From: Minisyncoccota bacterium
GTDB lineage: Bacteria > Patescibacteriota > Minisyncoccia > Phycocordibacterales > UBA9973
Assembly: GCA_017991515.1 (NCBI GenBank)
Contig: JAGOQI010000004.1
Coordinates: forward strand, 1-60,809
Reading direction: 5' to 3'
Length of the DNA stretch: 60,809 bases
The position numbers were made by a program, and so were the translations under genes. The notes under the pieces were generated by a model. That model was not told where the DNA came from, ran no database searches, and worked only from the letters and a program-made list of their open reading frames with translations. Shown here piece by piece: positions 3,984 through 60,300 of the stretch (position 1 is the first letter of the stretch; each line of letters opens with the position of its first letter).

Positions 3984-4331
3984 TTAAAATTGTAGTCCTG
4001 CCTCTCTAGCTGCATCAGCCAAAGCTTTTATTCGACCAGCGTACTTGAAACCATTTCGGTCAAAAACTACTGCTTTAATACCTTTTGCTTGAGCTAACTT
4101 AGCAACTTCCTGCCCTACTGAAATAGCTCCTTGCATCTTAGTTTCCTTTTTTCTGTTCATATCATTTGATGCTACTAGTGTAACTTGTGCAACATCATCA
4201 ATAAGTTGAGCGTATGAAAAATTGTTCGAACGAAACACACTCATCCGAGGACGATCTGCAGTACCAGAGATAAGCTTACGAACTTTTCGCTTAATTCTCA
4301 TTTTCTTTTCTTGTGTGTTTTGTCGTGACAT
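3984..4331 (-). CDS. rplR: 50S ribosomal protein L18
   Basis: [18 protein letters not shown] ... [28 protein letters not shown]. Confidence 0.95.
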
Positions 4332-5483: not shown

Positions 5484-5602
5484 ATTTTGTAAACCCTAAG
5501 AAATATCGCCTCTGGATGTCTGTATCATCACTTTTGTGTAGGCACAGAGATAAAGAGGGATTTCAAAGGAGTGGGCTTATCTTAACAGAAAGTAACTATT
5601 TG

Positions 5603-5638
5603 GTCAACCTCCTCACCTGTTTGGTGGGGAGGTCCAAT
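5603..5638. repeat. REP-like hairpin, copy 1 (CCTCCTCAC-N7-GTGGGGAGG)
   Basis: arms 5608-5616 / 5624-5632 flanked by gtcaa and tccaat; one of five copies in the window. Confidence 0.8.
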
Positions 5639-10578: not shown

Positions 10579-10680
10579 TAAGGCATAGTTAATAAAAGTA
10601 ACTTGCGCAGGCTGTCTGAGCCGAGCAGGAACAAAAAACTAGCAGGTTTTTATGTGTTTACTTTTATTAACTATGCCTTA
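10579..10680. repeat. long inverted repeat, perfect 23-bp arms (10579-10601 / 10658-10680) around a 56-nt GC-richer loop
   Basis: taaggcatagttaataaaagtaa ... ttacttttattaactatgcctta; the right arm overlaps the dgkA stop codon. Confidence 0.9.
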
Positions 10681-11064
10681 TGAGTGAAGGATTTTCGGAA
10701 TAAATATAATAATACCCACGATACTAGCTCCTAAAGCTGTGATAAGCACAGCGGCGGCGGCTACATCTTTAGTATCCTTAGCATACGGGTGATAATTTGG
10801 TGATGTAAGATCCATATCTATTTCCATGGCGGTATTGAAAGCTTCTGCTGCTAAAACACTTGTGATAGAAAGTATTATTACAGCCCACTCGCCTTCTGAG
10901 ATATGCAACCAAAGACCCAAAATGACCACCAAAACAGCTACTAGTCCGTGAACCCAAGCATTGTGCTGAGTCTTAAAAATAATACCAAGACCACGAAAAG
11001 CGTGAGTCAAACTCTTCCCTCTAGCGACTATCGAAAACCGCTTCTTCTCAGACATTTTTTGCAT
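10678..11064 (-). CDS. dgkA: diacylglycerol / undecaprenol kinase family membrane protein
   Basis: three TM helices and the DgkA signature AEAFNTAMEID. Start set to the ATG at 11064, because the upstream part of the ORF is occupied by a terminator hairpin. Confidence 0.75.
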   Translation of the reverse strand: MQKMSEKKRFSIVARGKSLTHAFRGLGIIFKTQHNAWVHGLVAVLVVILGLWLHISEGEWAVIILSITSVLAAEAFNTAMEIDMDLTSPNYHPYAKDTKDVAAAAVLITALGASIVGIIIFIPKILHS

Positions 11065-11097
11065 ATATTGAAGTATAGCCTGTATGCTCAGGCAGGC

Positions 11098-11126
11098 AAA
11101 TAAAAAGAACTCGTCGTAACGAGCTC
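11098..11126 (-). terminator. rho-independent terminator of the small basic protein gene
   Basis: minus strand GAGCTCGT-TACG-ACGAGTTC followed by TTTTTATTT. Confidence 0.65.
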
Positions 11127-11132
11127 TCATTT

Positions 11133-17307: not shown

Positions 17308-17808
17308 TTAGGCACCTTGTAACTCTTTTTTAAGCTCTTTAGCAGTAAAATACGAGTTAGTATTGTTGATAACACTAACGATAACATCAAAAACTTTTAA
17401 TAAATGACCTTTCAAAAGATCAATTCGGATGAAGTATCCCTTGTCAGGATGAAGGCAAAATCTGTGCTTTTGTACCTCTTTTAGTTTGATAGTAAATACA
17501 AAAGGCGTATTAACTTTATTGTCTTGAGCTTCAATGCTTTCTTTGATACTTGAAATGCATTGATTTAAGAGGAGGACATTGATTTCGTCATCGTCTCTAT
17601 GATGAAAACCAACCGTTATACACTCCTCTTCACTAATTCTATATTCACAAAAGCGAACATTGTCATAAGTAGAGAAATTGGGAAGTTTTTCTGAATTACT
17701 TTGTCTAAGAAATCCACCAATATCATGAAGGATTTGGCTTTTTAAAGAATTAAATTTCATAATTTGTACATTTTTCTTTACCATAACACGAGTTGTTTCT
17801 AGTGTCAA
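17308..17808 (-). CDS. hypothetical protein (orphan); start uncertain
   Basis: 166-aa ORF. Its 5-prime end overlaps REP copy 2, so an internal ATG (MVKKN.. or MKFNS..) is more likely the true start. Confidence 0.5.
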   Translation of the reverse strand: MTLETTRVMVKKNVQIMKFNSLKSQILHDIGGFLRQSNSEKLPNFSTYDNVRFCEYRISEEECITVGFHHRDDDEINVLLLNQCISSIKESIEAQDNKVNTPFVFTIKLKEVQKHRFCLHPDKGYFIRIDLLKGHLLKVFDVIVSVINNTNSYFTAKELKKELQGA

Positions 17809-17836
17809 ACCTCCCTACCAATTTAGTGGGGAGATT
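17804..17836. repeat. REP-like hairpin, copy 2 (CCTCCCTAC-N7-GTGGGGAG)
   Basis: arms 17810-17818 / 17826-17833 with left flank gtcaaa. Confidence 0.75.
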
Positions 17837-17863
17837 AAAAAAACCGCTCTTTCGAAGCGGTTT
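17837..17863 (-). terminator. rho-independent terminator of the SDR gene
   Basis: minus strand ACCGCT-TCGAAAG-AGCGGT followed by TTTTTTT. Confidence 0.75.
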
Positions 17864-19795: not shown

Positions 19796-19823
19796 ACTCT
19801 ATCACCTTGAGAAACCATGTCAA
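19796..19823 (-). promoter_or_regulatory. candidate promoter TTGACA-16-TGaTAGAGT for the 19205-19774 gene
   Basis: consensus -35 plus an extended -10, 21-nt leader; directly abuts REP copy 3. Confidence 0.55.
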
Positions 19824-19860
19824 TCCAAACCTCCCCACCAACTTGGTGGGGAGGTCAAAC
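19824..19860. repeat. REP-like hairpin, copy 3 (CCTCCCCAC-N7-GTGGGGAGG)
   Basis: arms 19830-19838 / 19846-19854, flanks tccaaa and tcaaac. Confidence 0.85.
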
Positions 19861-25599: not shown

Positions 25600-26475
25600 T
25601 TATTTCCCTGCTTGCGCAGACAGGTTATACCACTTCGCTCCATCCGTTTCGAAAGTTATACTTCCTGATTCGGCAGTTGAAACATAAGGAATGTTAAATT
25701 GTTTCAAAAGATCTAGGACTTCTTTGTGTGGGTGTCCATAAGAATTATCTTTAGCAGCAGATATTATAGAAAGTACTGGAGTAGTTACCTTAAGATATGC
25801 TGCGGTTGTAGAGGTACGAGAGCCATGGTGTCCGAGCTTTAAAATATCAACATTAAGAAGTTCAGGTACAGACTTGGCTAAGTACTGCTCAATAGGCGCC
25901 GGTGAATCCCCGGTAAACAAAATGCTTCTCTCTCCTGAAACAAACTTCCCTACTACTGAACCAGTATTTGTTTCCCAACCTGACACATCTCTATCGGGAA
26001 ATAAAACTAAAAAGTATTCCTCCCCAGAGAAATCAAACTTCATGCCAGATCTTACAAAATAACTAGGAACACCTTTCTCTTTTATCAAATTCATCAATCC
26101 TTTGTACTCATCTGTCTCTCCTCCGACTTCTGAAGTCAGGAACATATCAACTTTGTATCTCTTCAAAACTTCGTCGAGTCCTCCAATATGATCCGCATCT
26201 GGATGAGTCGCGAGGACTATATCTATAGTTTTATCATTCCAAGACATTACTTTTGAAAGCTCTCCAAGCACCATCGAGTCCCTTCCTCCATCTATCAGCA
26301 TTTGTTTACCATTGCTTGTTTCTATAAAAAAGCTGTCACCTTGTCCAACATCAAATATATAAACCTTGGACATTTTCTCTTCTATTTTTTGATTATCGGA
26401 AGAAAAAACCAGTCCTACAGATAAGGCGCAAATAATTATGAAAAATATACCTATTCGAGCAGTCTTGGAATTCAT
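25600..26475 (-). CDS. membrane-anchored metallo-beta-lactamase-fold protein, stand-alone ComEC C-terminal-domain type
   Basis: N-terminal TM helix; VYIFDVGQGDSFFIE ... VLATHPDADHIGG ... KLGHHGS. Confidence 0.8.
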   Translation of the reverse strand: MNSKTARIGIFFIIICALSVGLVFSSDNQKIEEKMSKVYIFDVGQGDSFFIETSNGKQMLIDGGRDSMVLGELSKVMSWNDKTIDIVLATHPDADHIGGLDEVLKRYKVDMFLTSEVGGETDEYKGLMNLIKEKGVPSYFVRSGMKFDFSGEEYFLVLFPDRDVSGWETNTGSVVGKFVSGERSILFTGDSPAPIEQYLAKSVPELLNVDILKLGHHGSRTSTTAAYLKVTTPVLSIISAAKDNSYGHPHKEVLDLLKQFNIPYVSTAESGSITFETDGAKWYNLSAQAGK

Positions 26476-26596
26476 CCCGTTAGAGGTAGGACATTTTTAA
26501 ATGTCCGTCCGTGTTATTAATATTAATTTTGACCTTAATTGTTTTAAAACGATATTTCATACTTGTATAACTAACATGGTACACCTCTAACGGGAT
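26474..26596. repeat. perfect 14-bp inverted repeat bracketing the whole divergent intergenic region
   Basis: atcccgttagaggt (26474-26487) and acctctaacgggat (26583-26596); an internal palindrome ggacattt-tt-aaatgtcc lies at 26489-26506. Confidence 0.85.
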
Positions 26597-26598
26597 TC

Positions 26599-27195
26599 AT
26601 GTATACTTATTGTATGTTTACAGAACAAAAATTCCAAATAGGCCCTTTGGTGGGTATAAGCGAGAAAAATATCGAAGAGCACTTGAAGCTCTATAGTGGC
26701 TATGTAAAAAATGCTAATGCTGTTATAGAAAAAGTGGCAACACTAGATGGTGAAAAAGATGCTTATCTTGTTGGGGAAATGTTTCGACGATTTAGTTTCG
26801 AATACAACGGCATGAGAAATCATGAAATTTACTTTTCATTACTAGAAGGATCTCCGACTCCTCTTAATCCTGAAAGTGAACTAGGTAAAACACTTCTTGG
26901 GCTTTTCGGAAGTTATGAAAAGTTTGTACAAGAATTCACCTCTTTGGCTATGACTCGAGGTGTTGGCTGGGCTGTGCTTTGGTATGACAAAAAAGAAAAA
27001 AAGATACTGGCTTCTTGGGTAGATGAACAACACTTGGGACAGTTAAACGGGGCTGAAATGATATTTGCACTTGATATGTGGGAACACTCTTATGTCGTAG
27101 ACTATCAACCTTCTGGCAAGAAACAATATGTTGAGGATTTCTTTAAAAATGTGAACTGGGCTGTAGTGGAAAAATATTTCTTAGATGCTCAATAA
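26599..27195 (+). CDS. Fe/Mn superoxide dismutase family protein (divergent)
   Basis: EEHLKLYSGYVKN, NHEIYF, LDMWEHSYVVDY; the four canonical metal-ligand positions (H, H, D, H) appear to be present. Confidence 0.6.
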   Translation: MYTYCMFTEQKFQIGPLVGISEKNIEEHLKLYSGYVKNANAVIEKVATLDGEKDAYLVGEMFRRFSFEYNGMRNHEIYFSLLEGSPTPLNPESELGKTLLGLFGSYEKFVQEFTSLAMTRGVGWAVLWYDKKEKKILASWVDEQHLGQLNGAEMIFALDMWEHSYVVDYQPSGKKQYVEDFFKNVNWAVVEKYFLDAQ

Positions 27196-28603
27196 TTTGC
27201 TTACGAAAAATTAAACCGAGAAAAACAGTATAGAAAAGTGTTACACCCCAGCCCGAGACGGCTGGGGTTTGCCATTGTGGCAGTGTAGAAAAATAAGTCA
27301 GAACTTTTATGGAAATAACGCCGACAAAACTAGTAATAATACCGATAAAACTAGCTAGTGGAGAAACAAATGAAGTCACTATTGCTAACAATCCTCCAAG
27401 CATCAGTATCGGGATTATTGGTACCAAGAAAATATTGGCAATTGGTGAAACAAGAGGAAAAAGTCCTGAGAAGTACATCAGATATGGAAGCATGAAAACT
27501 GGGAGGCCTGTAGCCAGTATCAAAAGTTCTCGTAAGTTTAATTTGCCGGCAACAGGTATGAAAGAAAGTTTTTGATTGAGAAGGGGTAAAAAAGCAATAA
27601 TATAAAATGTAGCTAAGAAAGAGAGGTGAAAACCAGGATCAACAAATATAGTTTGTGGAGATAAGAAAAAGAAAAATAGAAATGAAACAAGAAGAGCTCG
27701 GAAAACATTATAAGTATTCAGCGACATACCAGCGACAAGAGCGATGCTTCCCATTATCCCCGCTCGTACTGCTGCCACACCCGCCCCACTAACCAAAACT
27801 AGAGAAACTATTCCACAAAATATAACTAGGGTTTTTATTTTATATGGAACTCTCCGAAACAAAAGACCTATGAACCCCGCCAAAACTGTAATGTTATAAC
27901 CAGATAAAACAAGAGTATGAAGCGTGCCTGTGTAACGGAAAATATCAGAGAGGTACTTCGGTATACCTCCTTGGAAACCAACAAGCATTCCAGAGACTAT
28001 GCCATCTACTGGAAAAGCGATATACGAAGAGATTTTTTCTGCGATAAAACTTCTAGCAATACTTGAAGCTCTAAGTATTTGCAAATAAATATTTTTGTCT
28101 TTTTCCTCGAGAGAAACGACTTTTGCATTTCTCATCAAGGCTTCAACTCCGCGACTAGCTAAATACTGATCATAATCAAAAGTCCGACCAGTCTCTGTCA
28201 GAAAGTCCTCTGGTAGTTCTACTTTGCCACGAAGTGAAACCTTGTCTCCAGGCAATAAATCTGTCTTTTCATAAAGAGTAGTTTGGATATCGATGTCTTG
28301 TTTATCTATTTTTACTGAAACAAGAGTTCTATCTAGTCTTTCGTCTACTACTTTAACAACTCCGGTTAGTGCTTGGTTACCTAAAGGGATTTCATATGTT
28401 GGAATAACCCAAAACCTCATCGCACCAAGTACAACTGCCCCTGCCAAAGCTATGCTGACCAAAACGGCTCTCCTATTTCTTAAAACTAAATAAAAAAATG
28501 CTCCATAAAAAGCACTTATTATGCAAATATTAAAAAGTGAAACATCAAAAACACTATACAAACTCGCCCCGACTATAAGACTGATACAAAACAGTATCAA
28601 CAT
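27143..28603 (-). CDS. comEC: ComEC/Rec2 DNA-uptake channel protein, lacking the MBL domain
   Basis: 486 aa; N-terminal TM helices plus an OB-like region, then a polytopic competence domain; ends without a beta-lactamase-fold domain. Confidence 0.75.
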   Translation of the reverse strand: MLILFCISLIVGASLYSVFDVSLFNICIISAFYGAFFYLVLRNRRAVLVSIALAGAVVLGAMRFWVIPTYEIPLGNQALTGVVKVVDERLDRTLVSVKIDKQDIDIQTTLYEKTDLLPGDKVSLRGKVELPEDFLTETGRTFDYDQYLASRGVEALMRNAKVVSLEEKDKNIYLQILRASSIARSFIAEKISSYIAFPVDGIVSGMLVGFQGGIPKYLSDIFRYTGTLHTLVLSGYNITVLAGFIGLLFRRVPYKIKTLVIFCGIVSLVLVSGAGVAAVRAGIMGSIALVAGMSLNTYNVFRALLVSFLFFFFLSPQTIFVDPGFHLSFLATFYIIAFLPLLNQKLSFIPVAGKLNLRELLILATGLPVFMLPYLMYFSGLFPLVSPIANIFLVPIIPILMLGGLLAIVTSFVSPLASFIGIITSFVGVISIKVLTYFSTLPQWQTPAVSGWGVTLFYTVFLGLIFRKQIIEHLRNIFPLQPSSHF

Positions 28604-28616
28604 AAGACAAGTATAC

Positions 28617-28657
28617 GAGGTTTGACCTCCCCACTCAAGATAGTGGGGAGGTTTGAC
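28617..28657. repeat. REP-like hairpin, copy 4 (CCTCCCCAC-N8-GTGGGGAGG) with a GAGGTTTGAC direct repeat on both sides
   Basis: arms 28626-28634 / 28643-28651; opposite orientation to copies 1-3. Confidence 0.85.
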
Positions 28658-28663
28658 AACTTT

Positions 28664-29293
28664 TTATTGAGGCTTTTTTACTCTCAAATATCCCAAAAAT
28701 AACAATACTACACCAGCAACAGCGACCCATATTTTAATATTATTAGGCAATCCTACAGAATATGACAAGGCAAGACAAAGTGGCAATGTTCCGACAAAAG
28801 TAGCAATAGTGTAAGATCTCAACTTCATATCAGTAAAAAGTCCTAGAGCATAGCTAACAAAGTCAACAGGTACAGCAATTCTAAATATAATGACTGCAAT
28901 AAAAAGATTATGGCTTGGTATACGGCCTTCAATCCATCTTAGTTGTTTGTCACTAATAAATTTGTTCACTACATTGCGACCGTATTTTTTTGAAATATTA
29001 AAAGCAATTATTGCCCCTATAGTCCATCCAATACTTGTTAAAACAGCAGTAAGAAACGGACCCCATAATGTTACAGCTAAAGGTAGAGCAGGTAATAAAG
29101 TCACTGGCCCCATTACAGTTGCCACTATAAGACCAAAGAGATATATCAAAACACCTAAAATAGGAAATTTTTTAATAAATGACTGCAAATACTCTGCATA
29201 AGTAGAACTAAGATAAGACATTAAAATAAATGCCCCTGTTACGGCAATTATTATCAATAAGCTTTTAATTTGATTTTTGTTCATTTTTATCAA
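28664..29293 (-). CDS. DedA / TVP38-TMEM64 family membrane protein
   Basis: 209 aa polytopic; GPVTLLPALPL ... FRIAVPVDFVSYALG resembles the SNARE-associated (DedA) domain. Confidence 0.6.
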   Translation of the reverse strand: MIKMNKNQIKSLLIIIAVTGAFILMSYLSSTYAEYLQSFIKKFPILGVLIYLFGLIVATVMGPVTLLPALPLAVTLWGPFLTAVLTSIGWTIGAIIAFNISKKYGRNVVNKFISDKQLRWIEGRIPSHNLFIAVIIFRIAVPVDFVSYALGLFTDMKLRSYTIATFVGTLPLCLALSYSVGLPNNIKIWVAVAGVVLLFLGYLRVKKPQ

Positions 29294-44689: not shown

Positions 44690-45769
44690 TTAATTTGGAA
44701 CACTATTACCACAAGCTCTAATACCTACATATCCGTTTACTCCACCACTATAACATCCATCGTACAAGTAATAACCCGCACAACCCGGTATCGATGATGG
44801 ATTATTGAAATCAGGTGATTGGAAGTAGATTTGTCCAATATTACTACAGCCAGTAGGTTCTGTACCACCATTGCCAGGCTGAGCAAAAAGATATGGTGTT
44901 GTACTTACATCTAAACAAATATTTCCCGAGCCTGCTGCACAAACATTTTTATTGTGAACCAGATATCCGTCAGCAAAATATGTTCTATCTCCTGATAATT
45001 TGAAGTTAAACAGTGGTGTTGTTTCTGCTACTTGTTCACTTTCAATAGAATAAATATGAACTAATCCATTTTCTGTAATAAGAGTATCTCCAACAGCCAG
45101 TTGTGTTACTTCTATACCGATGTTCTCTTGTTTTGTTTTCTCTGGATTGATAGATTTCCAACCTTCTGTTGTTTTAAACGGGTGTTCTTCTGTTACGAAT
45201 GCTTTTTCGCCGTTGAAACCAAATATAATTCCGTCTGATTTAGGAGGTCTGTGATAGTCCAAAACAACATTATTTGTAGTTTCTCCTTTCAAAACATCGC
45301 CTATTTTTACATCTTGAATATTCTTTTTACTACCATCAGCCATTGTTACTAAAGTATCAGCTATGAAGCAGTTAAAAGCAGATGACCAAGATGTTCCGCC
45401 ACCTCCACCTCCACCTCCAATAGGTATCAAACAATCTGTAGTTAGTTTGTGTTCTTCATCTACACAAATTTTACGCTTGCCAGAAGTAGGGTGTAGATCA
45501 TCTATATATAGATTGCCAGATATAGTAGCGTTATTCCAAATAGCTAAACTATTTACTGCCAAGTTTCCTGAAACATCCAACATGGAACCAGATATAGGAG
45601 AACCTCCTTTTGATTGTTCAGTTGTTGTAGAGTTTAAAATATTAGCGACATTTCCGTTTGGAGGATTGCTTGTAGGACCAAATGCTGCATAAACATAGTT
45701 AAGCCCAAGACCAAAAACAACCATTAGAACTATAAATTTTATTTTGTTTAGTATGTTTATTTTTTTCAT
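44690..45769 (-). CDS. secreted protein P2: same N-module, Gly8 hinge, Hint/BIL autoprocessing domain, 86-aa Cys/Gly/Tyr-rich tail
   Basis: TSNPPNGNVANILNSTTTEQSKGG; CVDEEHKLTTDC; GGGGGGGG; Hint blocks CFIADTLVTMADG, VTEEHPF, GYLVHN. Confidence 0.8.
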   Translation of the reverse strand: MKKINILNKIKFIVLMVVFGLGLNYVYAAFGPTSNPPNGNVANILNSTTTEQSKGGSPISGSMLDVSGNLAVNSLAIWNNATISGNLYIDDLHPTSGKRKICVDEEHKLTTDCLIPIGGGGGGGGTSWSSAFNCFIADTLVTMADGSKKNIQDVKIGDVLKGETTNNVVLDYHRPPKSDGIIFGFNGEKAFVTEEHPFKTTEGWKSINPEKTKQENIGIEVTQLAVGDTLITENGLVHIYSIESEQVAETTPLFNFKLSGDRTYFADGYLVHNKNVCAAGSGNICLDVSTTPYLFAQPGNGGTEPTGCSNIGQIYFQSPDFNNPSSIPGCAGYYLYDGCYSGGVNGYVGIRACGNSVPN

Positions 45770-45788
45770 ATGTTTTTAATCTAACAGC

Positions 45789-46241
45789 TTATTCTATTAA
45801 ACAAATACTTGAGCAACCGTCCCCATTAGCAGTATTACCATCATCACACTGTTCAGCTTTTTCTATATAAGAGTTTCCGCACTGAGCATCACAAATAACA
45901 AGTTTATTGGAAGTATCTATACATACAGGACGAAGACCTGAAGTCCAAACACCTTGGTCTGAAGTCAAAGCACTTACAGTTACTTGATTTTCTACTGTCA
46001 TGTTCTGAATAACATATAGAACATTAGCAGAAAAAGTTTGAGCAACATCCAAAAGTGAACCCCTAAAAGAGCGTGAACCACCTTTTGATTGAGGATTTGA
46101 ACTAGTATTTATTGGACCAGAAACATTGTTTCCTGGAGGAACAGCTGTTGGAGCATTCCACGCAGCTAGAGCAATAGTACCGACAAAAAAAGTAGCAATT
46201 AAAAATTGTGTTAACAACTTCTTCAAATCAATATTTTTCAT
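45789..46241 (-). CDS. secreted protein P3: same N-module, then a myxococcal-type cysteine-rich repeat
   Basis: PTAVPPGNNVSGPINTSSNPQSKGG; CIDTSNKLVIC; CGNSYIEKAEQCDDGNTANGDGCSSIC. Confidence 0.7.
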   Translation of the reverse strand: MKNIDLKKLLTQFLIATFFVGTIALAAWNAPTAVPPGNNVSGPINTSSNPQSKGGSRSFRGSLLDVAQTFSANVLYVIQNMTVENQVTVSALTSDQGVWTSGLRPVCIDTSNKLVICDAQCGNSYIEKAEQCDDGNTANGDGCSSICLIE

Positions 46242-46257: not shown

Positions 46258-46320
46258 TATTAATTATGATTTACCATAAGTAATGTGGGTAAAATAAAAG
46301 ATATTAAGTTAAAAATAATA

Positions 46321-46349
46321 TTGTCTATACAATATATATATGCTATATT
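46321..46349 (+). promoter_or_regulatory. candidate nusA promoter TTGTCT-17-(TGc)TATATT
   Basis: -35-like and extended -10 elements at good spacing; the ~90-nt leader contains the hairpin ATGTCCGA..TCGGACAT (46362-46392). Confidence 0.45.
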
Positions 46350-46440
46350 GCTCTTATAGTAATGTCCGACGCCGAAAGGTTCGGACATTTCTGTTGAAAA
46401 TCGATAAAAACCCTTACAAAATAATAACAATATAAATATT

Positions 46441-47739
46441 ATGTTAGATATCAAAGCCCTAAAAATAGCTATAGAACAACTAGAAACTGAGCGCCGAATA
46501 GGTCGCGACAAACTTATTGACGCTATAGAACAATCCCTTGCCGCTGCTTATAAAAAAGAGTATGGCAAAAAAGGCCAAGTAGTACGCTCTCACATCGACC
46601 TTGATGCTGGAAGTGTTTCTTTTGACCAAGTTAAAACTGTAGTTGATGACTCCCTTGTTTACTTTGAAGAAGACCTGGCTGCGCAGGCAGGAGAAGAAAA
46701 CCCAGTTGAGCGTTCTGAAACAGATGAAAGAGAGTCTTATAACGAGGAGAAACATATTCTTCTGGAGGATGCTCGTATTATCAAAGCTGATGCTCAAATA
46801 GGAGACGAAATAGTCTTCGATCTAGAACCAAAAGATGATTTTGGTCGTATTGCTGCGCAAACTGCCAAGCAAGTTATCATTCAACGCATTCGTGAAGCAG
46901 AACGAGGTTCTATTATGGAAGAATTTGGTAGCAAAGAAGGCGACATAGTTTCAGGTCATATCCAAAAGGTTGACCGAGGAAATGTTTTTATTGATTTCAA
47001 CAGAGCAACAGGCGTTATTCCTCCAGCAGACCAAATACCAGGTGAACATTACAATCGTGGAGCTCGTATTCGAGGATATTTGTACAATGTCGAAGAATCT
47101 CCTCGAGGTATAAATTTGAAAATTTCAAGAACTCATCCAAAATTTATGGAAAAGCTTTTTGCCCAAGAGTCTCCTGAGATTGCAAACGGACTTGTAGAAA
47201 TAAAGGCTATTGCCCGAGAACCAGGTGCTCGTTCAAAAATAGCTGTTTATACAGAAGATCCAAATATTGATCCAGTAGGATCTTGTGTTGGTCAAAGAGG
47301 TGTTCGAGTGAGCACTGTTATGAATGAATTAAGTGGAGAGAAAATAGACATTATCGAATGGTCTTCTGATCCTGAAGAGTTTGTAAGAAAGGCTCTTTCT
47401 CCAGCAAAAGTTTTAGAAGTAATACTGGATGAAGCAGAACACAAAGCATCTATTGAAGTTACTCCTGATCAACTCTCTCTTGCTATCGGTAAAGGAGGGC
47501 AAAATGTTCGTCTAGCTGCCAAGCTGACTGGGTGGAAAATAGACATCAAAGGTAGTGAAGTTCCAGAGGGCGAAACTACTGAGACACCAGAAGGTGATGA
47601 CTTCAAACCTTTGTCTGATTTAGTAGAAAGTAAAACGGAGGAAGATGTTGAAGAAACAGAAACTCCTGTAGAAATAGAAACAACTGAAGAAGTTGTCGCA
47701 GAGGAAAAATTAGAAGAAACAACAGAAGAGGCGAAATAA
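46441..47739 (+). CDS. nusA: transcription termination/antitermination factor NusA (acidic insertion in the NTD, acidic C-terminal tail)
   Basis: FGRIAAQTAKQVIIQRIREAER, S1 and KH1/KH2 (GQRGVRV, IGKGGQNVRLA). Confidence 0.93.
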   Translation: MLDIKALKIAIEQLETERRIGRDKLIDAIEQSLAAAYKKEYGKKGQVVRSHIDLDAGSVSFDQVKTVVDDSLVYFEEDLAAQAGEENPVERSETDERESYNEEKHILLEDARIIKADAQIGDEIVFDLEPKDDFGRIAAQTAKQVIIQRIREAERGSIMEEFGSKEGDIVSGHIQKVDRGNVFIDFNRATGVIPPADQIPGEHYNRGARIRGYLYNVEESPRGINLKISRTHPKFMEKLFAQESPEIANGLVEIKAIAREPGARSKIAVYTEDPNIDPVGSCVGQRGVRVSTVMNELSGEKIDIIEWSSDPEEFVRKALSPAKVLEVILDEAEHKASIEVTPDQLSLAIGKGGQNVRLAAKLTGWKIDIKGSEVPEGETTETPEGDDFKPLSDLVESKTEEDVEETETPVEIETTEEVVAEEKLEETTEEAK

Positions 47740-49451: not shown

Positions 49452-50507
49452 ATGAAAAATAAAATCGATAATCTTTCAATAACAAATCTGCCCGACTCTA
49501 TGATAGAGATAAAAGGTGAGCTCTCATGGGAAGCTTTTGCAAAATATGAGAAAAAGGCTTTGGAGCAACTTTCAAAACATTTAGAAATAGATGGGTTTAG
49601 AAAAGGTTCTGTTCCTGAAGCTATGGCGAAGAAACATTTAGGAGACGAACTTGTTCTCTCTGATATGGCAGAACTAGCTCTTCAAGAATTCTACCCTACT
49701 ATTTTAGAAGAAAACAAAATAGACGCCATAGGCAGACCGTCTGTTTCTATTACTAAACTCGCTCGAGATAACTCTCTGGGCTTTACTCTTACTACCGCTA
49801 TTTTACCGGAAATAAAACTTCCTGACTACAAGAAACTTGCTAAAGGAGCTCCTGCTATTGCTGAAGTATCTGCTACTGAAGAAGAGATAGACAAGGTAGT
49901 AGAAGACCTTCGTCAAATGCGTGCTTATGGACATGTTCACGGACCAGAAGACAACCTGTCTGCGCAGGCAGGACACGAACACTCAGAAGAATTACCGGAA
50001 GTAAATGATGAATTTGCAAAAAGCTTTGGTGCATTTAACAGTGTCGCTGACCTACGAGCAAAAATTAAAGAAAATGTTTTAAAAGAAAAAGATCTTAATG
50101 AGAAAGATAAGCGCCGTATAAATATCATGGATGCCGTCATCAAAGAAGCTACTTTTGATGTACCAAAGATTATTTTAGAATCAGAACAAGAAAAAATGAT
50201 AGCTCAAATAGAAAGTGATGTTGCTAGAAGTGGAATGAAGTTTGAAGACTATTTAGCTCATACCAAGAAAACTCGTGAAGACTTGATGGAAGAATTCAAA
50301 GGTGAAGCAGAGCGCCGAGCTCGTTTCCAAATGGTTATCAATGCTATTGCTAAAGATATGGATATCAAAACTACTGACGAAGAAGTAGATGCTGAAGCTC
50401 AAAAGCTGATGCAACAATACCCCGGTGCCGACCTCGCTCGTACTAAAGCTTACGCTGATATGATGCTAGTCAACGAAAAAATCCTCTCAACATTGGAGAA
50501 TTTATAA
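49452..50507 (+). CDS. tig: trigger factor lacking the FKBP-type PPIase domain
   Basis: ribosome-binding signature GFRKGSVP in the N-domain; the C-domain begins LPEVNDEFAKSFG; only a ~23-aa His/Glu-rich linker lies between them. Confidence 0.85.
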   Translation: MKNKIDNLSITNLPDSMIEIKGELSWEAFAKYEKKALEQLSKHLEIDGFRKGSVPEAMAKKHLGDELVLSDMAELALQEFYPTILEENKIDAIGRPSVSITKLARDNSLGFTLTTAILPEIKLPDYKKLAKGAPAIAEVSATEEEIDKVVEDLRQMRAYGHVHGPEDNLSAQAGHEHSEELPEVNDEFAKSFGAFNSVADLRAKIKENVLKEKDLNEKDKRRINIMDAVIKEATFDVPKIILESEQEKMIAQIESDVARSGMKFEDYLAHTKKTREDLMEEFKGEAERRARFQMVINAIAKDMDIKTTDEEVDAEAQKLMQQYPGADLARTKAYADMMLVNEKILSTLENL

Positions 50508-53907: not shown

Positions 53908-54381
53908 ATGGCAAGCACTCTCCTTATAGGAAACTTAACTGTTGAAAAAGCTCGTTCTTTTATAAATTTAATTGAAATAGAATCAGAAAAATCTAAAAAA
54001 ATTTCTATCTATATTCATTCTCACGGAGGTAGTTTACGTGCATATGCTGAAATAGCAGAAGCAATGCTCAAACTATCAAAGAAAGGTGTATCGTTTATTG
54101 GGCTAGGTGCAAATACCGGCTCAACAGCAATGCTAATTTTCTTAAACTGTGATGAAAGATTAGTTACTCAATCTTCTAACGGATATATTCACTTACCTGT
54201 CGAAAAAGTACTTGTTTCTAAAGAAGTCAAAGAAAAAGAAACAAAAAAGATTGTTGGGTTTATAGAGAGAAGAACAATAATTTCTGAAAAAAATATATAC
54301 CAATTAAATGACTTACCTCTTTCAGCTAACGATATGGTGAAATATGGTATTGCTACTAAAAAAGTAATAAGCTTTCCTTAG
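53908..54381 (+). CDS. truncated ClpP-like (S14 / Clp-fold) serine peptidase paralog
   Basis: 157 aa; IYIHSHGGSLRAYAEI, GANTGSTAMLIF (compare GMAASMGS), NGYIHLP (compare MIHQP), SANDMVKYGIA; lacks the N-terminal axial-loop region. Confidence 0.55.
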   Translation: MASTLLIGNLTVEKARSFINLIEIESEKSKKISIYIHSHGGSLRAYAEIAEAMLKLSKKGVSFIGLGANTGSTAMLIFLNCDERLVTQSSNGYIHLPVEKVLVSKEVKEKETKKIVGFIERRTIISEKNIYQLNDLPLSANDMVKYGIATKKVISFP

Positions 54382-54387
54382 GTTAAG

Positions 54388-54419
54388 GCCGAATCTATTA
54401 AATATAGGTTCGGCTTTTT
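54388..54419 (+). terminator. rho-independent terminator
   Basis: GCCGAA..15 nt..TTCGGC followed by TTTTTA. Confidence 0.6.
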
Positions 54420-54430
54420 ATTTTTCGCGG

Positions 54431-54436
54431 TATACT
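54431..54436 (+). promoter_or_regulatory. -10 box TATACT, 6 nt upstream of the ATG
   Basis: TATACT-tatgtc-ATG. Confidence 0.35.
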
Positions 54437-54442
54437 TATGTC

Positions 54443-57145
54443 ATGTTAGAAAACAGAGAAACTTTTTCTTCGGGGTCACAAGAAGTATCGCATTTAGCAA
54501 GTGAAGCTCACAAGGCTTACACTATTCAAGAAGGTGGTCCTAAGACTCCAGAGGAAGCAACACTCTCAGCTATAGAAAAATATTCACGTGCAGAAGCTTC
54601 AGAATTTTTACATGAAGCTAGAGTCCTTCCAGAACACCAAGTAGAACATGTTGCACTTAGGCTTAAACCAGAGCCTCATGATAGAAAAGTTGAAGAACTC
54701 TTTGCTACAATGCTTGAAAAAGGCATCAAAAATGCCTTGGATATACTTCGTAAAATGAAAGATCCTCATTTAGAAGACGACTTTCATCGCTTCTTAGTCC
54801 AATATTTACATACTATAGGTGCTGTTCCAGGATTAAAAGAAAAAGACAATTTATATAAAGAACTAAACCACACTCTTTTCTCTGTGGCACTTCCTCCAGA
54901 AACAGAAGAAGTAGATTTCAAAAAGAAAGTTTCTGCCATGGGACAGTTTTATACTAGCTTAGTTTCACTTGTTGGACTTGAAAAAACTGTTTCTTTTGAA
55001 CTTGCTGTTGAACACTCTCGCAAAGATATTGTTGTATATGTAGCCATACCTAGAGAAAACATTGATGGTTTTGAAAAGTTTGTGCACTCATTTTTCCCTG
55101 GTGCTGCCGTAGAAGAAGTAGTGGACGATTTCAATATATTTGGACTCGAAGCACATTCTATTTCAGCTAGTGTTGCTACTTTGAAAGAGTCTCCTTTCAA
55201 ACCACTAAAAACATATTTAGATTTTGATAACGATCCTTTCTCTGGAACCCTCGGAGCGCTTGCACAGATAGCCGAAACAGGCGAAGGTTGTGCTCTTCAA
55301 ATAGTACTTTCTGAAAGTCATCACAAAATAGCCGACCGAAACAATATGATAATGTCTGAAGCCCAAAAAGGTGGAGCTCTTGTGAAAGACCTTTACAAAA
55401 AAGCTACCGAATCAATGCTTGGTTCTTTAGCAAAAGAGGCGTTTTCTTTATTTAAGAAAAAGGAAGAGGAAAAAGAAGAAGAAAAGAAAATAGACACCGA
55501 AGGAATAGAAATGTTCAAAAAGAAAAATGATTCTCGGGTAGTTGGAGCAACTCTTCGTATCATTACTTCTGCTAGTTCTACTGCTAGATCAGAACAACTA
55601 CGCAAATCTGTAGAAGCTTCTTTCGGCCAATACACTTATATCGGTGGTAACTCTATAGAATGGCAAGAATCCAAAAGCACATCTTTACTTGAAACTTGCC
55701 AAGCGTTTTCTTTTCGAACACAAAGTGAAAAACCTTTAGAACTCTCACTAAATGAAGTTTCAACAATGGTTCATTTCCCTACTAGCGTATCTTCTCCTCA
55801 CGAATTACAAAACAGTGGTGGCGCCAATGCTCCTGCCCCACTTGGAGCTTCAAAAAATGCTGATGGTGTATATCTTGGAACCAATACTTATCGTGGGCAA
55901 ACAACAAATGTCTTCTTGGGCAAAGAAGATAGAGTACGACACTGTTATGTTATTGGTCAGACAGGTACAGGTAAAACAACTATTCTGAAAAATATGGCTA
56001 TCCAAGATATCCAAAATGGCAACGGTATTTGTTTTATTGACCCACACGGCAACGATATAGAAGATATCTTGGCAAATATCCCCGCTGAGAGATTAGACGA
56101 TGTCGTCTACTTTGACCCAGCATATACAGCTCGTCCTATGGGACTAAACATGCTTGAATACGATGTAAATTATCCTGAGCAAAAAATATTTGTTATCAAC
56201 GAACTCCTCGGTATCTTCAACAAGCTTTTTGATATGAAAACTGCTGGTGGTCCTGCCTTCGAACAATATTTCCGAAACTCTGCTGGTCTTATCATGGAAG
56301 ATCCAGAAAGCGGATCAACACTTTTAGAGATCAGTCGTGTCCTATCTGACAAGGCTTTCAGACAAATGAAGCTCGCGAAATGTAAAAATCCTATTATCAA
56401 ACAATTCTGGGAAAATGCTGAAAAAACTACAGGTGAGGCATCACTTGCAAACTTTGTGCCATATATCACTAACAAGTTTGACCCATTCGTATCGAACGAC
56501 ATTATGCGACCAGTAATAGCTCAACAACACAGCGTACTGAACTTCCGGGAAATAATGGATAATAAGAAAATACTTTTAGTAAACCTTTCAAAAGGTCGTC
56601 TTGGCGATATCAACTCTCACCTTATAGGTCTTTTGTTAGTTGGGAAAATAACCATGGCTGCCCTATCTCGTGTTGATATGGTTGGTAAGGGACCAGTAAA
56701 TGATTTCTATCTTTATATTGATGAATTCCAAAATGTAACCACTGATTCTATAGCGACTATTTTGTCCGAAGCTCGAAAATACAGACTTTCTCTAACTGTT
56801 GCGCACCAATACATCGAGCAACTTGAAGAAACTATCAAAAATGCGGTCTTCGGAAATGTCGGCTCAATGATTATCTATCGCGTGAGTCCAGAAAATGCTG
56901 CAATTTTCGAAAAACAACTTACTCCAACATTTACTCCTGATGATGTGTTGAAACTCCAAAACTTTAATGCTTATGCAAAAATTTTAGTAAACGGTGTACC
57001 AGAGAAAGCATTTAACCTCAAAATCCCACCTCCACCAAAAGGTAACAACGATATTGCCGACAAAGTGAAGCAAATCTCCTACCTCAAATACGGACGGCCG
57101 AGAGAAGAAGTAGAAGCAGAAATCATGTCTAGATATCAAATCTAA
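54443..57145 (+). CDS. soluble VirD4/TraD/TrwB-like P-loop NTPase with a ~480-aa unknown N-terminal region
   Basis: 900 aa; Walker A GQTGTGKTT followed by CFIDPHGND; Walker B LYIDEFQN; ARKYRLSLTVAHQY; no TM helices seen. Confidence 0.7.
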   Translation: MLENRETFSSGSQEVSHLASEAHKAYTIQEGGPKTPEEATLSAIEKYSRAEASEFLHEARVLPEHQVEHVALRLKPEPHDRKVEELFATMLEKGIKNALDILRKMKDPHLEDDFHRFLVQYLHTIGAVPGLKEKDNLYKELNHTLFSVALPPETEEVDFKKKVSAMGQFYTSLVSLVGLEKTVSFELAVEHSRKDIVVYVAIPRENIDGFEKFVHSFFPGAAVEEVVDDFNIFGLEAHSISASVATLKESPFKPLKTYLDFDNDPFSGTLGALAQIAETGEGCALQIVLSESHHKIADRNNMIMSEAQKGGALVKDLYKKATESMLGSLAKEAFSLFKKKEEEKEEEKKIDTEGIEMFKKKNDSRVVGATLRIITSASSTARSEQLRKSVEASFGQYTYIGGNSIEWQESKSTSLLETCQAFSFRTQSEKPLELSLNEVSTMVHFPTSVSSPHELQNSGGANAPAPLGASKNADGVYLGTNTYRGQTTNVFLGKEDRVRHCYVIGQTGTGKTTILKNMAIQDIQNGNGICFIDPHGNDIEDILANIPAERLDDVVYFDPAYTARPMGLNMLEYDVNYPEQKIFVINELLGIFNKLFDMKTAGGPAFEQYFRNSAGLIMEDPESGSTLLEISRVLSDKAFRQMKLAKCKNPIIKQFWENAEKTTGEASLANFVPYITNKFDPFVSNDIMRPVIAQQHSVLNFREIMDNKKILLVNLSKGRLGDINSHLIGLLLVGKITMAALSRVDMVGKGPVNDFYLYIDEFQNVTTDSIATILSEARKYRLSLTVAHQYIEQLEETIKNAVFGNVGSMIIYRVSPENAAIFEKQLTPTFTPDDVLKLQNFNAYAKILVNGVPEKAFNLKIPPPPKGNNDIADKVKQISYLKYGRPREEVEAEIMSRYQI

Positions 57146-58411: not shown

Positions 58412-58684
58412 ATGAACAAAGCATCACTTGTTGAACTCGTACACGGCATTGTCGGCGGTACAAAAGTACAAGCTGAAGAAGTCATGGAGAGTATCATCTC
58501 TGCTATTACCAACACTCTCAAAAAGGGTGACGAAGTATCTATAGCTAGTCTTGGTATCTTCTCTGTGAAGACTCGTGCAGCTCGTACAGCTCGTAATCCT
58601 AAGACTGGTGAGCCAGTAAAGGTTGCGGCAGCTCGTGTTCCTCGATTTAGAGCCGCAAAAGCTCTTAAGGACGCAGTTAAATAG
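58412..58684 (+). CDS. hup: HU / IHF-family DNA-binding protein
   Basis: 90 aa; MNKASLVE, GDEVSIASLGIFSVKTRAARTARNPKTGE. Confidence 0.95.
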   Translation: MNKASLVELVHGIVGGTKVQAEEVMESIISAITNTLKKGDEVSIASLGIFSVKTRAARTARNPKTGEPVKVAAARVPRFRAAKALKDAVK

Positions 58685-58713
58685 CATTTCCCCGAGCTCG
58701 GGTACATGTATAC

Positions 58714-60218: not shown

Positions 60219-60258
60219 ATTTGACCTCCCCACTAGTTTGTAGTGGAGGAGGTTTGAC
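60219..60258. repeat. REP-like hairpin, copy 5 (CCTCCCCAC-N9-GTGGAGGAGG)
   Basis: arms 60225-60233 / 60243-60252, TTTGAC on both sides, one extra base in the right arm. Confidence 0.8.
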
Positions 60259-60300
60259 ACACACCTTAGAAATGAGTAGTATCAAGAAAAACTTAATGTT

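Follow-up and report, generated by a model that had tools for sequence, protein, structure and literature searches.

A discrete 18-bp GC-rich near-palindrome, CCTGYCTGCGCAGGCAGG, is cleanly inserted, in frame, in three housekeeping genes of a Patescibacteria (candidate phyla radiation, CPR) bacterium, and the same 18-mer occurs in more than 100 different low-GC contexts elsewhere, so that it behaves like a selfish or neutral mini-palindromic insertion sequence. The stretch of DNA analyzed (the window) comprises 60,809 nucleotides of contig JAGOQI010000004.1 (assembly GCA_017991515.1), and its host is a Nomurabacteria/Paceibacterota-type CPR bacterium. The 19-mer ACCTGKCTGCGCARGCAGG is found at 25607-25625 (-), 46673-46691 (+) and 49954-49972 (+), whereas 0 copies are expected and none was found in 100 dinucleotide-preserving shuffles. 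All three copies are read as [D/N]-L-[S/A]-A-Q-A-G, within YNLSAQAGK* in an MBL/ComEC-C-like gene, EEDLAAQAGEEN in nusA and EDNLSAQAGHEH in a trigger factor (tig) gene lacking the PPIase domain. The recurrence and shared frame of the motif, as first noted in a preliminary description, are therefore confirmed, and a fourth, degenerate copy has been added (Table 1). The sense strand is predicted to fold into a 7-bp stem with a GCGC loop (-8.3 kcal/mol), while the mutated copies of the window fold more weakly.

Table 1. Copies and possible relatives of the 18-bp palindrome in the window
Position	Strand	Sequence	Location	Remarks
49955-49972	+	CCTGTCTGCGCAGGCAGG	tig (49452-50507 +), His-rich linker	Canonical copy; adds LSAQAG
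46674-46691	+	CCTGGCTGCGCAGGCAGG	nusA (46441-47739 +), acidic loop of the N-terminal domain	One substitution; reads GA[18-mer]A
25607-25624	-	CCTGTCTGCGCAAGCAGG (minus strand)	MBL-fold/ComEC-C-like gene (25600-26475 -), two codons before the stop	One substitution; reads AA[18-mer]G AAA TAA
11079-11096	+	CCTGTATGCTCAGGCAGG	Antisense to, and probably upstream of the true start of, the diacylglycerol kinase gene (10678-11130 -), or at the extreme N-terminus of its ORF	Two mismatches; the Pfam domain starts at residue 43 of the longest ORF
10611-10629	+	GCTGTCTGAGCCGAGCAGG	Loop of the 23-bp inverted repeat 10579-10601/10658-10680	Possible decayed relative; uncertain

Comparison with close orthologs revealed the boundaries of the unit. 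In trigger factor, the window reads GAA GAC AA, followed by CCTGTCTGCGCAGGCAGG and A CAC, where an 87%-identical ortholog (locus L120) reads GAT GAT AAA CAC, so that the element is an exact 18-bp block entering AAA with neither target duplication nor loss. Among 120 Tig homologs, only the window and a 99%-identical relative (P0121) carry it. For nusA, the closest insertion-free ortholog (P0003/L120) is 91% identical, whereas a relative that is 97% identical at the nucleotide level (L277) carries the perfect palindrome CCTGCCTGCGCAGGCAGG at the same place. NusA insertions lie at different positions in different lineages, and one NusA contains two copies. In the MBL gene, removal of the element restores TGG TAT AAG AAA TAA, the WY[K/R]K* end that most homologs have. 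At this position (site A), copies with 0, 1, 1, 2, and 5 mismatches are found in five lineages scattered on the tree, while the nearest relatives of the window are empty; a second position, site B, is filled in three separate places. Independent assemblies reproduce the copies (L277, P0121, and a further relative, P0241, on 4 contigs).

Several details of the preliminary description did not withstand this comparison. The unit measures 18 nt rather than the 20 or 45 nt proposed, since the extended similarity between nusA and tig already exists in the insertion-free L120 (GAT GAT AAA CAC GAT CAC) and thus reflects acidic/His-rich codon composition. The element does not supply the stop codon of the MBL gene, and loss of the PPIase domain, with which the tig copy had been linked, is clade-wide and independent of it. 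The partial copy suspected in the hairpin loop (10605-10629) is at best a degenerate relative that matches the family arms only with mismatches and is not statistically established.

Exact-match scans showed that the 18-mer is widespread. A genome scan returned at least 119 loci, of which 31 are labelled Roizman-, Beckwith-, Nomura-, Kaiser-, Giovannonibacteria, Paceibacterota, Minisyncoccia or Saccharibacteria, and a metagenome scan gave 120 more; almost all sites are unrelated to one another. Judged solely from flanking conserved motifs, host genes of the genome-scan copies include EF-G, GyrB, DnaK, CTP synthase, and GatB; RpoC and a Mu-like phage are also among the contexts. Some hits fell in MAGs labelled Gammaproteobacteria, Pseudomonadales or Leptonemataceae (loci L004, L040, L045, L058, L069, L101, L108, and L032), labels that may or may not denote true non-CPR hosts. 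Since only exact matches were searched for, the apparent constancy of the sequence across the phylum is partly due to ascertainment bias. No flank conservation was observed in 50 and in 81 independent low-GC sites beyond a weak G-R|C preference (G/A at -1 and C at +1), with G..C flanks in 22 of 81 sites against 15.5 expected. About 85% of low-GC sites lie inside ORFs of at least 100 codons, and 62 of 71 genic low-GC sites (about 87%) use a single palindrome-symmetric frame (p=5e-21), sense outnumbering antisense by 65:30 (p=4e-4). Nested 18-nt inserts at the palindrome centre were seen in three loci (L122, L124, and L136). The element furthermore belongs to a family with the same arms and variable centres, of which 25 by-catch members were found against 1.15 expected per Mb, mostly in frame.

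Taken together, the most plausible interpretation (probability roughly 0.65) is that the motif, CCTG[T/C]CT-GCGC-AGGCAGG with 7-bp arms, one T:G position in the commonest form and a perfect-palindrome variant, belongs to a family of tiny palindromic insertion sequences in Patescibacteria genomes and at least one phage. The analysis shows that the sequence enters DNA as an exact 18-bp block without target-site duplication or loss of target bases, that it is present or absent among close relatives, that it recurs at the same nucleotide positions in lineages whose nearest relatives lack it, that it can sit in tandem with, adjacent to or nested in the centre of another copy, and that it then decays by point substitution. 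Because 18 is a multiple of three and no frame has a stop, genic copies do not break the ORF; surviving copies lie in variable loops, linkers, C-terminal tails, and short intergenic spacers, nearly all in the one frame giving L-S/P-A-Q-A/T-G rather than Cys/Arg-rich peptides. In contrast, it is only inferred that the element is selfish or neutral DNA copied from existing copies by a trans-acting enzyme whose specificity keeps the consensus identical across classes, and that the absence of duplication, the hairpin, the strand bias, and the liking for hairpin centres and terminator-proximal sites point to a single-stranded hairpin intermediate, IS200/IS605- or REP/RAYT-like in logic. The peptide itself is most likely a passenger. 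However, no transposase, HUH enzyme, nuclease, RAYT or other candidate enzyme was found in the window, which encodes only a Hint-domain protein and a TraG/VirD4-like ATPase in this respect, or next to paired copies. Moreover, an 18-nt single hairpin is smaller than anything known to be mobilized, its flanks show only a weak G-R|C preference where IS200/IS605 and REP systems use a guide/target tetranucleotide, and recurrence at identical positions could also reflect old insertions with precise losses, or selection for a function.

The suggestion in the preliminary description that the motif resembles Rickettsia palindromic elements (RPEs) is partly supported, as the analogy holds but family membership does not. 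The motif is a nucleotide-level element inserted in frame into unrelated genes and not a conserved peptide motif. Like RPEs (Ogata et al. 2000, as tabulated in PMC3184786), the element is a palindromic repeat without an encoded transposase that is inserted in frame into unrelated protein-coding genes, including housekeeping genes, as well as into intergenic DNA, the added peptide residing in tolerant regions. RPEs, however, measure about 105-146 bp (PMC3184786), form Rickettsia-specific consensus families and are confined to Rickettsia, whereas the present unit is 18 bp (relatives 20-21 bp), is shared as an identical sequence across several Patescibacteria classes and a phage, and shows a single dominant frame. 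With REP/REPIN elements mobilized by RAYT (IS200/IS605-like Y1 HUH transposases), it shares a short GC-rich imperfect palindrome with conserved stem and variable loop, the lack of terminal inverted repeats and target duplication, families of variants, and clusters and adjacent copies; a REP-like array with the same core occurs in a GC-rich contig (L228). REPs are nevertheless 21-65 bp, extragenic, present in hundreds of copies and carry a conserved GTAG/CGTC head (PMC3184786; PMC3733652), while the element described here is mostly intragenic, occurs at about tens per Mb (about 25 extra family members per Mb) and has no conserved head. Insertion and excision without duplication or footprint, hairpin recognition, and strand bias are features of IS200/IS605-family single-strand transposition; the clean insertion and the predicted hairpin agree with this family. 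IS200/IS605 elements require left and right end hairpins, a guide/target tetra- or pentanucleotide and an encoded or trans TnpA; here, only a weak G-R preference is seen upstream, and no TnpA was seen in the window. A further parallel is provided by the GC clusters of yeast mitochondrial DNA with their derivatives (byps) and the double-hairpin elements of Allomyces mtDNA (see the review PMC8811140). These are GC-rich palindromic mini-elements invading a very AT-rich, compact genome, including in-frame insertion into protein genes, with mobility inferred from presence/absence. They differ in being organellar, 30-60+ bp long and often accompanied by short target repeats; byps are skipped by the ribosome, whereas the present element has no stop in any frame and is presumably translated. 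The element is not a MITE, a class defined by terminal inverted repeats flanking a core, target-site duplication, and a length of about 50-400 bp, since it has no core and no duplication. A search for its two 9-mer halves as ends of a longer transposon found no separated pairs but only more palindromic relatives, and the ORFs between paired copies are housekeeping genes (RpoC, PheT, CCA-adding enzyme). An Rfam gathering scan of the window and 8 loci found no known RNA family overlapping the motif, but only a tRNA elsewhere.

Among alternative explanations, an unlikely one that survives somewhat better than the others regards each copy as a dead-end scar of break repair, formed when an abundant hairpin oligonucleotide from a phage, a retroelement or another source is captured at double-strand breaks or stalled forks. 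In favor of this view are the absence of target duplication, target loss, and a conserved target, the location of copies at hairpin centres and beside terminators, where forks stall, the presence of copies in a Mu-like phage contig, and the nesting of several different 18-nt hairpins at the same place. On the other hand, no source molecule is known, no locus with conserved longer flanks that could be a master copy was found beyond a group in the HU 3′ UTR, and exact reuse of the same nucleotide position in separate lineages suggests targeting rather than random breaks. Slightly less likely still is a functional cis-acting site for a conserved dimeric protein (for example, a parS-like centromere, a nucleoid-occlusion or SMC-loading-type site, or a homing/LAGLIDADG-type 7-4-7 target) that must be placed inside genes because these genomes have almost no intergenic DNA. 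The spacer-less 7-4-7 palindrome is identical in many classes, its density is low to moderate (about 25 family members per Mb beyond the seeds, 4 in 60 kb here), some copies at 62-70% protein divergence are still 17-18/18 identical while neighboring third codon positions have diverged, and an orthologous copy between the HU stop codon and its terminator occurs in five contigs. However, the HU 3′ UTR of the window lacks it, three of the four window copies carry substitutions, many homologous copies are visibly decaying (TSTQAG, PPANTG, VPAHAG), and the closest relatives lack the site with no replacement nearby. Centres also vary in sequence and length, and other 18-mers nest into the centre, which would destroy a binding site. 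The sequence is unrelated to the 16-bp parS palindrome TGTTNCACGTGAAACA, which clusters near oriC; canonical parS-like sites occur in a single low-GC locus (L190) of unchecked taxonomy.

A DNA uptake signal, raised in the preliminary description as a weaker alternative, is not supported and appears very unlikely. ComEC, a type IV pilus ATPase, and a platform protein are encoded in the window, and the sharing of the sequence across related lineages, its two orientations, its occasional proximity to terminators, and its frame bias are also seen for the uptake sequences of Neisseria (DUS) and Pasteurellaceae (USS). Those sequences and cyanobacterial HIP1 are, however, 8-12 nt long, occur at about 1 per kb and arise by substitution, whereas the 18-mer is found at about 1 per 15-40 kb (4 copies in 60.8 kb, and 1 exact-type extra copy in about 300 kb of flanks), being 15-40 times rarer, and arises by clean insertion followed by decay in situ. 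Identity across whole classes is unlike the genus-level dialects of DUS, and nested and variable-centre relatives do not fit a receptor motif. Selection for a peptide motif ([D/N]LSAQAG), suggested only by the dominant frame, is effectively refuted, as nucleotides are identical in genomes of 31-50% GC without synonymous variation, intergenic and other-frame copies exist, the antisense orientation gives LPAQTG, and the motif is absent from nearly all orthologs of functionally unrelated host proteins.

If the favored interpretation is correct, the lower size limit of repeated insertion DNA would fall below the smallest REPs (21 bp), and ultra-compact CPR genomes, usually described as poor in mobile DNA, would be seeded with selfish palindromes hiding inside essential genes. 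Such copies would offer a simple tag for tracking recent insertion and loss between closely related, uncultivated lineages, an explanation for some lineage-specific loop insertions in CPR core proteins, and a defined substrate with which to fish for an enzyme inserting DNA seamlessly without duplication; they would also call for caution in annotation and phylogenetics, because these six-residue blocks are not homologous characters. No description of the sequence or the phenomenon was found in the searchable literature by exact sequence and peptide strings or by keyword. A bolder possibility, which remains tentative, is that the hairpin is a bona fide mobile element, the smallest known, copied between sites and between distantly related Patescibacteria and their phages by a yet unidentified enzyme that targets hairpin tips or stalled forks and neither duplicates nor damages the target, its in-frame survivors being a steady source of six-residue loop insertions in core proteins (RpoC, EF-G, GyrB, DnaK, NusA, Tig). 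A phage origin was considered and rejected, since a viral scan mostly returned the perfect palindrome in GC-rich contigs in all frames, likely an unrelated background or a REP-like family, and only 4 low-GC contigs were hit, one of them Mu-like.

The pattern ACCTGKCTGCGCARGCAGG occurs exactly three times in the window, on both strands, whereas none was found in 100 dinucleotide-preserving shuffles. The host ORFs encode NusA (with NusA_N, S1 and KH domains), a trigger factor with N- and C-domains but no PPIase domain, and an MBL-fold protein of the ComEC C-terminal type. In all three, the copy is read as [D/N]-L-[S/A]-A-Q-A-G. The preliminary description, which had reported one GC-rich palindromic core read in the same frame inside three unrelated genes, was therefore correct in its observation. 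When mismatches are allowed, a fourth copy, CCTGTATGCTCAGGCAGG, is revealed, which is antisense to the diacylglycerol kinase ORF and probably lies upstream of its true start. The window has a GC content of 36%, and by its NusA homologs it comes from a Nomurabacteria/Paceibacterota-type member of the Patescibacteria.

Coordinates of the element copies, their host genes and other features, in the window unless another contig is named
Feature	Position	Strand
Pattern copy in the MBL-fold gene	25607-25625	-
Pattern copy in nusA	46673-46691	+
Pattern copy in the trigger factor gene	49954-49972	+
18-nt indel in the trigger factor gene relative to L120	49955-49972	
Fourth copy, with mismatches	11079-11096	
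nusA	46441-47739	
Trigger factor gene	49452-50507	
MBL-fold gene, ComEC C-terminal type	25600-26475	-
Competence/DUF4131 membrane part of ComEC	27143-28603	-
Fe/Mn superoxide dismutase gene	26599-27195	opposite to the two ComEC genes
Whole split ComEC region	25600-28603	
HU gene	58412-58684	
HU gene with the palindrome and terminator that follow	58412-58710	
Stretches each holding one hairpin of about 30 nt	5579-5637, 17781-17839, 19801-19859	+
Stretches each holding one hairpin of about 30 nt	28621-28679, 60220-60278	-
23-bp inverted repeat	10579-10601 / 10658-10680	
Possible decayed relative of the 18-mer family in its loop	10611-10629	
Region with weak Hint matches and DUF4215 protein	44690-46241	
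Switch of gene orientation	about 46300-46450	
ClpP-like ORF and TraG/VirD4/HerA-like ATPase	53908-57145	
Hint-containing protein in the relative L275	6337-8904	
Copies in the Mu-like phage contig L136 (IMGVR_UViG_3300031952_000413)	2363-2406 and 4016-4035	
REP-like arrays in the GC-rich contig L228/L140	1137-3707	
Tandem repeats in the Leptonemataceae MAG L032	5600-6200	
parS-like sites in the low-GC metagenome contig L190	891-1845	

A scan of one genome per GTDB species with the 19-mer returned at least 119 loci, whereas about 17 chance hits are calculated for a uniform-composition collection of 596 Gb. Thirty-one loci carry Patescibacteria names (Roizman-, Beckwith-, Nomura-, Kaiser- and Giovannonibacteria, Paceibacterota, Parcubacteria group, Minisyncoccia and Saccharibacteria), although these genomes are small and AT-rich. 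The remaining hits are high-GC background, exemplified by the NAD-epimerase motif NLAAQAGVRYS and a Kitasatospora repeat; a few hits lie in MAGs that merely carry non-CPR labels. Alignment of 50 low-GC sites revealed no conservation whatever outside the core. A second scan, of metagenome contigs with the bare 18-mer CCTGTCTGCGCAGGCAGG, yielded at least 120 more loci, containing 81 distinct low-GC sites with both flanks available. These show only a weak flank preference, with G at -2, G/A at -1 and C at +1. Since both scans required exact matches and their locus counts are lower bounds, the constancy of the sequence, the total copy number and the taxonomic range are incompletely sampled by these figures. 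The element is therefore an 18-mer with 7-bp arms, CCTG[T/C]CT and AGGCAGG, around GCGC. The sense strand is predicted to fold at -8.3 kcal/mol, the perfect-palindrome variant at -11.0 and the reverse strand at -4.6.

The nearest available relative, L120 (GCA_020850295, a Nomurabacteria MAG with NusA 91% and trigger factor 87% identical), is syntenic with the window over about 11 kb. A nucleotide alignment of the two reports one indel in the trigger factor gene, consisting of exactly CCTGTCTGCGCAGGCAGG. At the codon level, the window reads GAA GAC AA[C CTG TCT GCG CAG GCA GG]A CAC GAA CAC, while L120 reads GAT GAT AAA CAC GAT CAC. Removal of the 18-mer restores the AAA codon, and there is neither a target duplication nor a deletion. 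Among 120 trigger factor homologs (54-99% identity), only the window and a 99%-identical protein from independent assemblies carry LSAQAG, whereas all the others have the short His-rich linker. This disposes of three points of the preliminary description. The similarity over 45 nt between the nusA and tig copies is just the pre-existing acidic/His codons. The absence of the PPIase domain, where the tig copy was said to sit exactly, is clade-wide: trigger factor lacks this domain in the whole clade (341-361 aa; homologs P0121-P0240), and in its place is a conserved His-rich linker (HVHGxxDxHxH) that might bind metal. The acidic stretch of NusA, reported to have no counterpart in E. coli, is clade-wide too, and the element adds six residues to it. 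In nusA the insertion reads GA[18-mer]A, and a relative 97% identical at the nucleotide level (L277) carries the perfect palindrome CCT at the spot where the window has GCT, so that the window copy has already mutated.

The MBL-fold gene gives an unbiased view, since its 120 homologs were collected by protein similarity and not by motif. Most of them end in WY[K/R]K followed by the stop codon. One insertion position, site A, lies between the second and third base of the penultimate codon. It is occupied in the window (AA[...]G) by a copy with 1 mismatch, and among the homologous loci in L279 (AA[...]A) by an exact canonical copy, in L278 (CG[C TTG ...]T) by a copy with 1 mismatch, in L280 (CG, CCTACCTGCGCAGACAAG, A) by a copy in the opposite orientation with 2 mismatches, and in L282 (CG, CACATCTACTCAGGCAGG, C) by a copy with 5 mismatches encoding the peptide TSTQAG. 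In L281 (TGG TAT AGA AAA TAA) it is empty. The stop codon is therefore native, contrary to the earlier claim that the element supplies it. A second position, site B, lies 16 residues upstream, between QDSG and TVTF, and carries an exact copy in L281 and element peptides in two other groups. On a neighbour-joining tree built without these regions, filled states fall in at least four separate places for site A and three for site B, while the window's nearest relatives (76-83% identity) are empty. Either the same nucleotide positions are hit repeatedly, or old insertions are lost precisely many times; in both cases the block is gained or lost as a unit, and copies of different ages coexist. The gene itself is one half of a split ComEC: the Competence/DUF4131 membrane part and the MBL domain are separate genes, and between them lies an Fe/Mn superoxide dismutase gene that overlaps the end of the first, an arrangement conserved in relatives (L278-L282). 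NusA shows the same behaviour as the MBL-fold gene. Most of 120 homologs have no insert; the window and the loci L122 and L124 have one at the same position; and L276 has a decayed copy two codons further on (GC[C GTG CCT GCG CAC GCA GG]A), plus an exact copy in the C-terminal tail.

In low-GC contigs of the metagenome scan, where 82 sites were tallied for reading frame, 62 of 71 copies inside ORFs of at least 100 codons use a single frame, C CTG NCT GCG CAG NCA GG (p=5e-21 against one-third). Because of the palindrome, this frame is the same on both strands, giving LSAQAG in sense and LPAQTG in antisense, whereas the other frames would give PVCAGR, CLRRQ or PACADR. Eleven sites are intergenic or in short ORFs. 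The genome scan gives the same picture. Sense orientation is favoured, at 41:21 and 24:9 (pooled 65:30, p=4e-4). The host genes, as judged only from the conserved motifs that flank the insert or from their translations, include EF-G, GyrB, DnaK, CTP synthase, GatB, RpoC, PheT, CCA-adding enzyme and an FKBP-type PPIase, and in each case the copy appears to lie in a variable loop or tail. The intergenic copies include an orthologous one, located 8-9 nt after the HU stop codon and before the terminator in five related contigs (L072, L168, L202, L225, L237), where the canonical 18-mer is followed by TCTCGAGA. The window's own HU gene is followed instead, 5 nt after its stop, by a different GC palindrome, CCCGAGCTCGGG, and then a terminator. 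Apart from such orthologous groups, the sites are unrelated to each other.

Besides the seed copies, the roughly 1.0 Mb of low-GC loci contains 25 further sequences of the form CCTGYC-(0-14 nt)-GRCAGG, whereas order-1 Markov simulations expect 1.15, with a maximum of 4. These include the perfect palindrome, a 20-mer, CCTGCCTGCCGGCAGGCAGG, and a 21-nt subfamily, CCTGCCTNCCGGCGAGGCAGG. Most are in frame, for example DLPTGQAG, HLPAGKAG and LPAGEAG. GatB carries the canonical copy in one locus (L006) and a 21-nt relative at the same site in another (L268). Copies can be tandem (locus L171) or 8 nt apart (locus L165). Three times, a different 18-nt GC hairpin is nested at the centre of a copy, its position being ambiguous by one base: AATGCCTTCACATGCAAG between CCTGCCCGC and GCAGGCGGG in L122, CCTCCCGGGTGGTCGGGA in L124, and CCTGCCGGCACAGGCGGG between CCTGTCTGCG and CAGGCAGG in L136. 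The last is a Mu-like phage contig (Gam, GemA, Mu-F, portal; GC 0.42), in which the split canonical copy lies inside a Mu-F-like gene; it also carries an un-nested, in-frame canonical copy and several other GC-rich palindromes. In the window, a possible decayed relative of the family lies in the 56-nt loop of a perfect 23-bp inverted repeat immediately after the diacylglycerol kinase stop codon. A GC-rich (0.64) contig, L228/L140, has REP-like intergenic arrays built on the same core (CCTGTCTGCGCAGGCAGGCAGGCA and variants), and the Leptonemataceae MAG L032 has tandem 118-nt repeats, each carrying a variant of the palindrome. The motif or a look-alike therefore exists outside Patescibacteria.

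The data fit selfish or neutral insertion DNA, whose consensus would be kept by the specificity of whatever copies it. While the clean edges, the gain or loss of the block as a unit and the coexistence of copies of different ages are results of the comparisons, this selfish or neutral character and any mechanism of copying are inferred. The absence of duplication, the hairpin, the strand bias and a preference for hairpin centres and terminator-proximal positions are the logic of single-strand hairpin transposition (IS200/IS605, REP/RAYT), yet this step is inference only: no enzyme was found in the window, there is no conserved guide or target tetranucleotide, and 18 nt is below any known mobilisable unit. 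The main mechanistic rival is a repair-capture origin, in which a hairpin oligonucleotide is trapped at breaks. A protein-binding site (7-4-7 palindrome) cannot be excluded, but fits poorly with mutated copies (three of four here), variable centres, nesting and empty closest relatives. An uptake signal, raised in the preliminary description as a weaker alternative, is contradicted by the low density in the loci examined, by origin through insertion and by decay. A peptide motif is excluded by exact nucleotide identity in genomes of 31-50% GC, by the existence of intergenic copies and by absence from nearly all orthologs. In function, the element resembles Rickettsia palindromic elements (RPE) and yeast mitochondrial GC clusters, but it is not a member of RPE (105-146 bp), REP (21-65 bp, extragenic, GTAG/CGTC head) or MITE (inverted repeats plus duplication). 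The proposed reading as an RPE-like in-frame element is hence partly supported. Searches of the literature for the sequence, the peptides and the phenomenon found nothing relevant. In-frame palindromic selfish DNA is already known; the element, on this reading a case of it, is unusual for its size, its seamless insertion and its reach across a superphylum.

The window also holds, in intergenic DNA, five copies of a roughly 30-nt hairpin, AAACCTCCCCAC-(7-9 nt)-GTGGGGAGGTCAAA. On the coding strand, its GGAGG arm lies about 10 nt upstream of a start codon, and it looks like a repeated Shine-Dalgarno-sequestering 5′ UTR structure or a second small repeat family. In the low-GC metagenome contig L190, which also carries the 18-mer, three canonical parS-like sites (TGTTCCACGTGGAACA and relatives) lie within 1 kb. 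At about 46300-46450 gene orientation switches, almost all genes being on the minus strand to the left and on the plus strand to the right, and the cumulative GC skew has its minimum here too; this could be a replication origin or just a divergent operon boundary, and no dnaA was seen in the window. A 359-aa protein with weak Hint / homing-endonuclease-associated Hint matches is encoded in this neighbourhood, and a 150-aa DUF4215 protein lies just upstream of nusA, whereas relatives have much larger Hint-containing proteins at this place (for example in L275). A short second ClpP-like ORF (157 aa, weak match) is followed by a 900-aa TraG/VirD4/HerA-like ATPase (DUF8128 in relatives), conserved in synteny in L120 and L122.
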